Assembly (NCBI GenBank): GCA_964636085.1
Contig: CAZWPQ010000007.1
Span: 1-42,887 of the forward strand
Source of the DNA: an uncultured Nitrososphaerota archaeon
GTDB lineage: Archaea; Asgardarchaeota; Njordarchaeia; Njordarchaeales; Panguiarchaeaceae
Reading direction: 5' to 3'
DNA length: 42,887 nucleotides
Below the pieces are notes generated by a model. It searched no databases. It was given only the letters and a program-made list of their open reading frames with translations, and had not been told where the DNA came from. The position numbers and the translations under genes are program-made. Position 1 is the first letter of the stretch. Each line of letters opens with the position of its first letter. Positions 2,558 to 2,720 of this stretch are shown piece by piece.

Positions 2558-2720
2558 GGGGTGCCTCTCTGGCCGCTCAAGACTGATGTGTTTTTGGGCC
2601 GCAGAGCCCGGCAAACAAATTAGTCTATGGGCCCGCAAGTTCGATTCAAATACACGTGAGCCGTGAGCTCGAATACCAATCTGAACAACGCGGGCCTCGA
2701 GCTGACCAGAGAGGCACCCC
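2558..2720. ncRNA. Candidate IS110 bridge/seek RNA (strand uncertain)
   Basis: A perfect 15-bp closing stem, GGGGTGCCTCTCTGG (2558-2572) / CCAGAGAGGCACCCC (2706-2720), encloses two hairpins (2581-2625 and 2630-2696). The second hairpin has a large internal loop whose sequences match the element junctions. Confidence 0.65.

Follow-up and report, generated by a model that had tools for sequence, protein, structure and literature searches.

The locus and its recombinase gene

The window, i.e., the whole stretch of 42,887 nucleotides analysed here, harbors an IS110-family insertion sequence in which a structured RNA is encoded upstream of the recombinase. The region 2586-2679 is very probably a part of the bridge (seek) RNA gene of this element, in an Asgard (Njordarchaeota-like) genome. 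To our knowledge, only bridge or seek RNAs act as guides for both partners of a DNA recombination and, as far as we know, their structural understanding is confined to bacterial IS621-like systems. The features of the locus are as follows:

2463-3939, + strand: IS110-family insertion sequence (about 1.48 kb, counted from AA core to AA core)
2463-2464, + strand: left copy of the predicted AA core (SL1 3' side GGCAAAC-AA-AT versus ..AAAC-AA-AT in the DNA, 2459-2466)
2473-2490, + strand: left-end hairpin CCGCCCC-TTTC-GGGACGG (with one C.A mismatch in this copy and none in the 95% variant)
2494-2500, + strand: box ATACACG, proposed DNA partner of segment b (same sense as 2650-2656)
2506-2514, + strand: left subterminal inverted repeat TTGATTTCT (reverse complement of 3923-3931)
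2558-2720, + strand: putative bridge RNA gene of 163 nt (long closing stem P1 and two stem-loops, SL1 and SL2, in a three-way junction, each stem-loop with an internal loop)
2586-2595, + strand: segment a, SL1 loop 5' side, proposed right-target guide ending in UU, the core complement (2596-2597 belong to the distal stem)
2610-2620, + strand: putative left-target guide GGCAAAC + AA + AT, SL1 loop 3' side (same sense as the left junction)
2650-2656, + strand: segment b, SL2 loop 5' side, putative guide for the left-end box (covariation)
2657-2671, + strand: distal hairpin of SL2, UGAGC-CGUGA-GCUCG, which contains segment c (consensus fold)
2672-2681, + strand: segment d, SL2 loop 3' side, putative guide for the right end ATACC + AA core + 2 nt (covariation)
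2749-3870, + strand: recombinase gene (373 aa)
3923-3931, + strand: right subterminal inverted repeat AGAAATCAA (partner of 2506-2514)
3933-3939, + strand: right end ATACC + AA core, proposed DNA partner of segment d (sequence match, covariation)
3940-3948, + strand: right flank AAGACACAT, proposed partner of segment a (reverse-complement match)

The recombinase contains the domains DEDD_Tnp_IS110 (Pfam PF01548, 1.6e-10) and Transposase_20 (PF02371, 1.3e-27), and scores 206 bits (cut-off 140) against the NCBIfam model NF033542, "IS110 family RNA-guided transposase". It matches the transposases of IS621 and ISCro4 whose structures are solved (PDB) with E-values of about 1e-16 (3e-16 for IS621), the similarity to IS621 being limited to the C-terminal domain. 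Its nearest plasmid-borne relatives include haloarchaeal elements (about 29% identity), and it is remote from both the IS110 and the IS1111 reference groups. The RNA gene ends 28 nt before the ATG of the recombinase, and the stretch after the recombinase stop codon is only 69 nt long. Several homologous loci (L028, an 86% variant; L050; L061; L063; L054) have kept the RNA gene with a broken or shortened recombinase frame. In a related Njordarchaeota MAG (contig C117 of genome G004; L018/L048), a 95% copy lies directly downstream of a second IS110-family gene, which is 33% identical, and a second IS110-family type like that one also occurs in the window's own genome, on contig C77.

Fold, family and strand of the RNA

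The RNA fold has a z-score of -9.3, and an alignment of nine RNAs from six protein families (40-100% identity) displays compensatory changes in 19 of the 32 consensus pairs. Searching 151 Asgard genomes with the covariance model built from these nine RNAs gave homologues in 12, each time next to an IS110-type gene or its remnant; the model found no such RNA beside the 30%-identical bacterial (Bacillota) and haloarchaeal relatives. No Rfam family matched positions 2300-4200 at E ≤ 1. Counting both Asgard genomes and metagenomes, about 24 distinct homologous RNAs served for the segment tests presented below, and 27 for the counts of base pairs.

Over these 27 sequences the consensus pairs include 74 G.U versus 14 A.C, two pairs being near-invariant G.U (24/27 and 26/27), and this excess of G.U over A.C favours the + strand as the transcribed one. 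A guide RNA produced from the minus strand, and thus diverging from the recombinase gene, appears quite improbable to us. In line with it, the minus strand of the window copy folds slightly better (-89.4 versus -86.9 kcal/mol), TTTTAAAT stands 22-29 nt from the stem end on the minus strand, and one C.A mismatch of P1 would become a G.U pair. Yet the two near-invariant G.U pairs, together with the 74 G.U counted versus 14 A.C, would turn into mismatches; the covariance model scores 157 bits on the + strand versus 28 on the minus strand; in all families, TTTAAA separates the ATG from a conserved GGTGA ribosome-binding site; and, with the true ends of the element (see below), it is the + RNA that has the published strandedness (left half on the bottom strand, right half on the top), which a minus RNA would not have. 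Folding energy proved uninformative as a strand test, the minimum free energy not separating the strands (17 of 26 RNAs fold better on +, with means of -72.5 versus -70.9 kcal/mol). We also observed that the closing stem is preceded, at a distance of 4 nt, by a TATATAAT box (2546-2553), with comparable A/T boxes in other families; its position resembles that of a bacterial -10 element, and it would be too close for an archaeal TATA box if the transcript contains the whole stem.

Ends of the element and its core

The ends were delineated by comparing copies of the same or an 86-95% related element, namely those reaching the own-genome contig ends C39, C44 and C47 (left) and C63 and C86 (right), together with those of metagenome contigs. 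The copies have in common the stretch from 2460 (AACAAATAATCATCC... / AACAAATAATCATCCGCCCC...) to 3940 (...ATACCAAA / ...ATCAACATACCAAA), beyond which the flanks are unrelated, as seen at no fewer than six left and four right junctions of the same or a 95%-identical element. Because the copies share 2460-3940 with unrelated flanks, positions 2487-2493 lie inside the element and not in its flank. The preliminary description had taken them, with the 3' arm of a hairpin among them, as the left flank, next to ends that it regarded as independently inferred; these ends were wrong, and the true left end is located about 31 nt further out.

As to the core, the dinucleotide AA occupies positions -4/-3 of the loop 1 3' side in 22 of 24 RNAs and positions 7-8 of the loop 2 3' side in 23 of 24, with two further bases between AA and the stem on both 3' sides, while the loop 1 5' side ends in UU in 22 of 24. 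Hence AA or UU stands in a fixed register at three of the four guide positions (guide b is devoid of AA), and AA is present at both junctions. From this register and the junction comparisons, we propose AA as the crossover core. The model advanced previously, in which the element would extend from ATAC (2494) to ATAC (3936) around a 4-nt core, is highly improbable. ATAC does occur at both places, but the 34 bp located 5' of 2494 (2460-2493), hairpin included, travel with every copy and with the 86-95% variants while the flanks differ; the core seen in the guides is AA; and an unoccupied GGGACGGCTCATACCAAA is absent from the genome, even with up to 2 mismatches allowed.

Since neither an empty site nor a circle junction was found for this element type, the register of the core rests on the guide alignment. 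A search of 12 relatives did not yield the right flank, the one further contig that has the neighbouring gene is occupied too, with no empty site there, and the circle junction for this type is absent from the 6 contigs with the same or the 95% protein. From the position of AA in the guides, the core would be at 2463-64 and 3938-39, an alternative register being AA at 2460-61 and 3939-40. With the former, every left flank ends in AAC and every right flank begins with A, the target sequence would be AAAC-AA-AAACACAT, and the abutted ends would form the junction ...ATCAACATACC-AA-ATAATCATCC..., while ...ATACCAAACAAATAATC... would correspond to a 3-nt shift.

On a separate matter, the left flank in the window (2440-2462) reads ...GGAGTCATTTAATTT, and metagenome contigs (L023/L065, L067) join the same right flank as in the window, AAGACACATTGAG..., to another left flank, ...CAATAATAGTT, which also flanks the element in the own-genome contig C39. 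A chimeric join across the 1.48-kb repeat is probable in one of the assemblies.

The internal loop of SL2 and the two ends of the element

The preliminary description rested on four short matches (segments a to d) between the RNA and the presumed junction and flanks. All four are present letter by letter, but within the window they are barely above chance, a signal which is weak alone: between the 163-nt RNA and the two 31-nt junction windows of that description, runs of at least 7 nt number 3 versus 0.66 in dinucleotide shuffles (P = 0.03) and versus 1.01 in natural 163-nt segments of the window (P = 0.08). When the homologues are considered, b and d stand out as guide-like segments, a is a plausible one and c is a chance match. 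It is hardly conceivable that the structured RNA serves as a leader of the recombinase mRNA, or as a regulatory element in it, with all matches being fortuitous: the matches within the window are marginal, but covariation with the DNA partner is seen for three segments, in a single sense and at fixed positions.

The following lines of evidence concern b and d, which face each other across one internal loop in both the predicted and the consensus fold, as had been noticed previously. First, segment b (ATACACG) is identical to 2494-2500, and segment d (ATACCAA, 2673-2679) to 3933-3939. Second, the last 7-9 nt of the loop 2 5' side recur in the same sense 1-4 nt after the left-end hairpin, and the first 7-10 nt of the loop 2 3' side recur in the same sense about 60 nt past the stop codon of the cognate element. 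Third, the match values are greater in cognate than in non-cognate pairs, for b (6.44 versus 4.93; opposite-sense control 4.38) as for d (7.62 versus 5.42; opposite-sense control 4.85), with p ≤ 5e-5 each, a value that is approximate, like all our covariation p-values, as related sequences are not independent; for d, 0 of 20,000 permutations reached the observed sum. Fourth, b and d each covary with their DNA partner across about 8-9 sequence types. The box and b change together by family (ATACACG, ACACACC, ACATACC, TAGACAAAT, GAGACAAA, GAATAGT and AGAGATGA), and d exists as ATACCAA, ATACTAA, ATAGCAAA, ACATCAAT, ATACCAAA, CATAGCAAA, ATAACAAAT, CATGGCAAAT and ATGGCAAAT. The earlier proposal of guide segments in the RNA of an IS110-family element is thus borne out by covariation for b and d. 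The view of d as target-like is not, and b and d would both be donor-directed, because d matches the element's own right end plus core.

The partner of b lies next to a conserved hairpin. Among 19 distinct left ends, 17 have this hairpin, 1-4 nt 5' of the box; its stems, of 3-7 bp, display compensatory differences between families and average 4.2 bp versus 1.0 in shuffles. The box is about 29 nt from the core in the window's element (21-30 nt across elements), and 40-65 nt upstream of the RNA across homologues. The subterminal inverted repeats, of 9 bp here, have 7-11 bp at the same places in five other families (C17-type, L043, L047, L055 and L022). Miniature elements retain only the hairpin, the box, the left repeat and the right end, which suggests that the box is needed in cis.

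Alternatively, b and the box could be alike because both are DNA-binding sites of the recombinase, i.e., a repeated protein-recognition motif without RNA-DNA pairing. This is unlikely in our opinion, even though b has no core and its strand is the "wrong" one under the published geometry, and though the box abuts the subterminal inverted repeat, which is thought to be an end-recognition feature in IS1111 elements. Indeed, eight motif types occur across the families and the RNA loop equals the box each time; a motif which is free to vary between families, but is identical in loop and box, is the signature of pairing, not of protein recognition. Furthermore, b sits in an internal loop, directly facing the established guide d.

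Preferring a guide role for b, we nevertheless stress that its location on the same DNA strand as d, together with its lack of the core, makes it a poor fit to the geometry of strand exchange as published. In the RNAs, a guide complementary to the core-proximal left end was looked for, and none stands at a consistent place. A discontinuous b (left-end CAAA plus box TACACG) was rejected, as the 67% relative of the element keeps UUCAAAUACACG despite its left end GTCCCC. The motif common to b and d was also considered as a second core, a weak case (p about 0.01) which is absent in the nearest families.

A possible reading, to which we give clearly less than even weight, is that the donor loop of this clade reads the right end plus core and the left-end box on one DNA strand. 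The conserved DNA hairpin lies between these two segments, and the subterminal inverted repeats bracket them. On this speculative reading, the donor would be recognised as a folded (cruciform-like) strand via a loop-loop contact, unlike the split top/bottom pairing of IS621. If true, this would constitute a second mode of RNA-guided donor recognition, in Asgard archaea.

Segment c (TGAGCCGT, 2657-2664), the reverse complement of 2487-2494, had been regarded as a guide for the left flank. It is a chance match corresponding to the stem and loop of the conserved distal hairpin of SL2. The five pairs of this hairpin are retained in 9/9 aligned RNAs, two of them via compensatory changes in one sequence (L046), and its closing U.G is unchanged in 9/9. 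The loop bases vary freely (GT/GU, AT/AU, AC, CT/CU) with no change at 2487-88, as those copies keep ACGG, and the stem UGAGC is constant in families with different left ends. Accordingly, the guide roles proposed before (b for the donor, d for the target, c for the left flank and a for the right flank) have very little chance of being correct as a set. To their credit, all four matches exist, b and d share AAUAC, and runs shared by b and d are slightly commoner in cognate pairs (3.9 versus 3.4, p about 0.01). On the opposite side, c does not covary, and ATAC is common to b and d in this clade only, their counterparts in related families having no common tetramer (e.g., ACACACC versus ATAGCAA).

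The internal loop of SL1 and the insertion site

The 3' side of loop 1 was missed by the preliminary description. Its DNA match is the left junction, 19-29 nt upstream of the box and at a fixed distance from it, and the match value is greater in cognate than in non-cognate pairs (6.45 versus 4.43, approximate p = 2e-4). On the six flank-only positions 4.1/6 match (approximate p ≤ 5e-5, for sites preselected by a match of at least 6 nt including the core). Individual loci illustrate this co-variation. In L036, the guide GUACC-AA goes with an element adjoining GGACC-AA, and its relatives (the other P0002 copies) have AUACU-AA beside ATACT-AA; in the near-identical elements L055 and L064, the guides differ and the flanks differ correspondingly.

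On the 5' side of the same loop, 2586-2597 (ATGTGTTTTTGG) equals 3936-3948 in reverse complement, apart from one bulged base, segment a proper being complementary to AA + AAGACACAT (3938-3948) with one bulge. By its place and sense, a is a plausible guide for the right flank, as had been proposed, and the right junction in the window is the best guide fit among the 17 compared (7/8). Its covariation is not significant (p = 0.51 and p = 0.17 in two cross-family tests, both approximate); the a guides are A/T-rich and most copies fit poorly, including four of the five sites where the same a guide occurs. In the 67% relative, we also considered the SL1 5' side as a guide for the element's own right end (AAAAATCAA), and rejected this A-rich coincidence, which is absent in the window's element.

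With the proposed target guides (a and 2610-2620) in the other stem-loop, the arrangement is not the compact one initially envisaged. Comparing homologues thus confirmed b and d, showed no covariation of c and left a below significance. As regards method, short self-matches picked out two segments correctly and misled for one, and only multi-copy junctions and covariation discriminated between them.

Proposed mechanism

We propose that loop 1 addresses the insertion site and loop 2 the element's own ends. In loop 1, the 5' side (segment a) would be complementary to the top strand of the AA core plus right flank, and the 3' side (2610-2620) would reproduce the left flank followed by AA and by the element's first two bases. 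In loop 2, the 3' side (segment d) would correspond to the last five bases of the right end plus AA, and the 5' side (segment b) to the 7-nt box, about 29 nt inside the left end, between the conserved hairpin and the left subterminal inverted repeat; segment c is simply the distal hairpin of loop 2. Guided by these pairings, the recombinase (2749-3870) would swap strands at AA, the partners being the target and the excised element with its ends joined.

Comparison with the IS621 and IS1111 systems

The rules of the IS621 bridge RNA have been established (Durrant 2024, PMC11208160; Hiraizumi 2024, PMC11208158). Like IS621 and ISCro4, the present element combines a DEDD/RuvC plus Tnp recombinase with an RNA encoded upstream, in the left end. 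The predicted RNA also resembles theirs in having two internal loops, target first and donor second, in addressing the bottom strand for the left half and the top strand for the right half, and in including the core dinucleotide within guides, with two extra bases after the core on the 3' sides, a layout known from the right-hand guides of IS621 with their handshake guides.

The differences from IS621 are as follows. The order within the target loop is reversed, the top-strand complement being on the 5' side: in IS621, the 3' side is complementary to the core plus right half (PMC11208160, PMC11208158), whereas here the 3' sides correspond to the left half plus core, and the loop 1 5' side ends in the core complement. 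The core is AA instead of CT, the long closing stem leads to a three-way junction, and the subterminal repeats have 9-11 bp versus 2-3 bp. Finally, both donor guides would be on the same strand, guide b being devoid of the core and reading a box located 21-30 nt away, beyond a DNA hairpin.

In IS1111 seekRNAs the guide order is reversed relative to IS621 (Siddiquee 2024, PMC11187229). As in the IS1111 elements ISEc11, ISPa11, ISKpn4 and IS4321/IS5075 (PMC11187229), the top-strand complement stands 5' of the bottom-strand match in the RNA, the subterminal inverted repeats are long (7-17 bp in that group, 9 bp here), and asymmetric terminal extensions lie beyond the repeats. Unlike nearly all IS1111 elements, in which the RNA gene is downstream of the recombinase, it is upstream here; a few IS1111 members (e.g., ISMtsp17) also have an upstream non-coding region. 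In addition, the left extension, which includes a hairpin and a box, measures about 41 bp versus 7 bp, the right one is 6 bp plus core versus 3 bp, and the protein has 23% identity with the IS4321 transposase over 82% of its length.

The RNA therefore mixes features of both groups: it is located upstream, as in IS110, and its predicted guide order, together with the long subterminal repeats, resembles IS1111, not IS621. Its arrangement had been called non-canonical. This holds in that the order is the reverse of that of IS621 and the site of b is about 29 nt from the core, but the order is the one published for IS1111 seekRNAs; a guide for a remote box appears unusual. Archaeal IS110 recombinases are known from a survey that included Asgard genomes, and that covers the proteins only, without their RNAs (Vaysset 2024, bioRxiv 10.1101/2024.06.21.599552). 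Our findings point to bridge RNA systems in Asgard archaea, with an RNA that is absent from Rfam. If the remote guide is functional, it would widen the design rules for programmable recombinases, and would bear on the divergence of the IS110 and IS1111 groups.

A related element and its miniature derivatives

The insertions of the 67% relative (contig C17, protein P0002) have the boundaries flank/AAGTCCCC... and ...CATACTAA(G)/flank. Its junction ...ATCAACATACT-AA-GTCCCCT-hairpin-TT-ATACACGG... is present in five contigs of about 1.48 kb. Contigs L037-L041 (P0002), of about 1.48-1.6 kb and from different samples, have the same right-end/left-end junction at their start and finish. Because both ends of these contigs fall in this junction, L037-L041 represent circular or tandem forms. 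The left-target guide of the P0002 type (AUACU-AA) is identical to the element's own right end, and would direct insertion beside an existing copy.

In the own-genome contig C17 (+ coordinates 1-1130; L002/L049), a miniature derivative of about 125 bp, comprising the hairpin, the box and the left repeat joined to about 78 bp of the right end, precedes the 67%-related element. The insertion point of the full copy is precisely the AA that follows this mini-element's right end, and similar mini-elements occur beside copies in L062 and L014.
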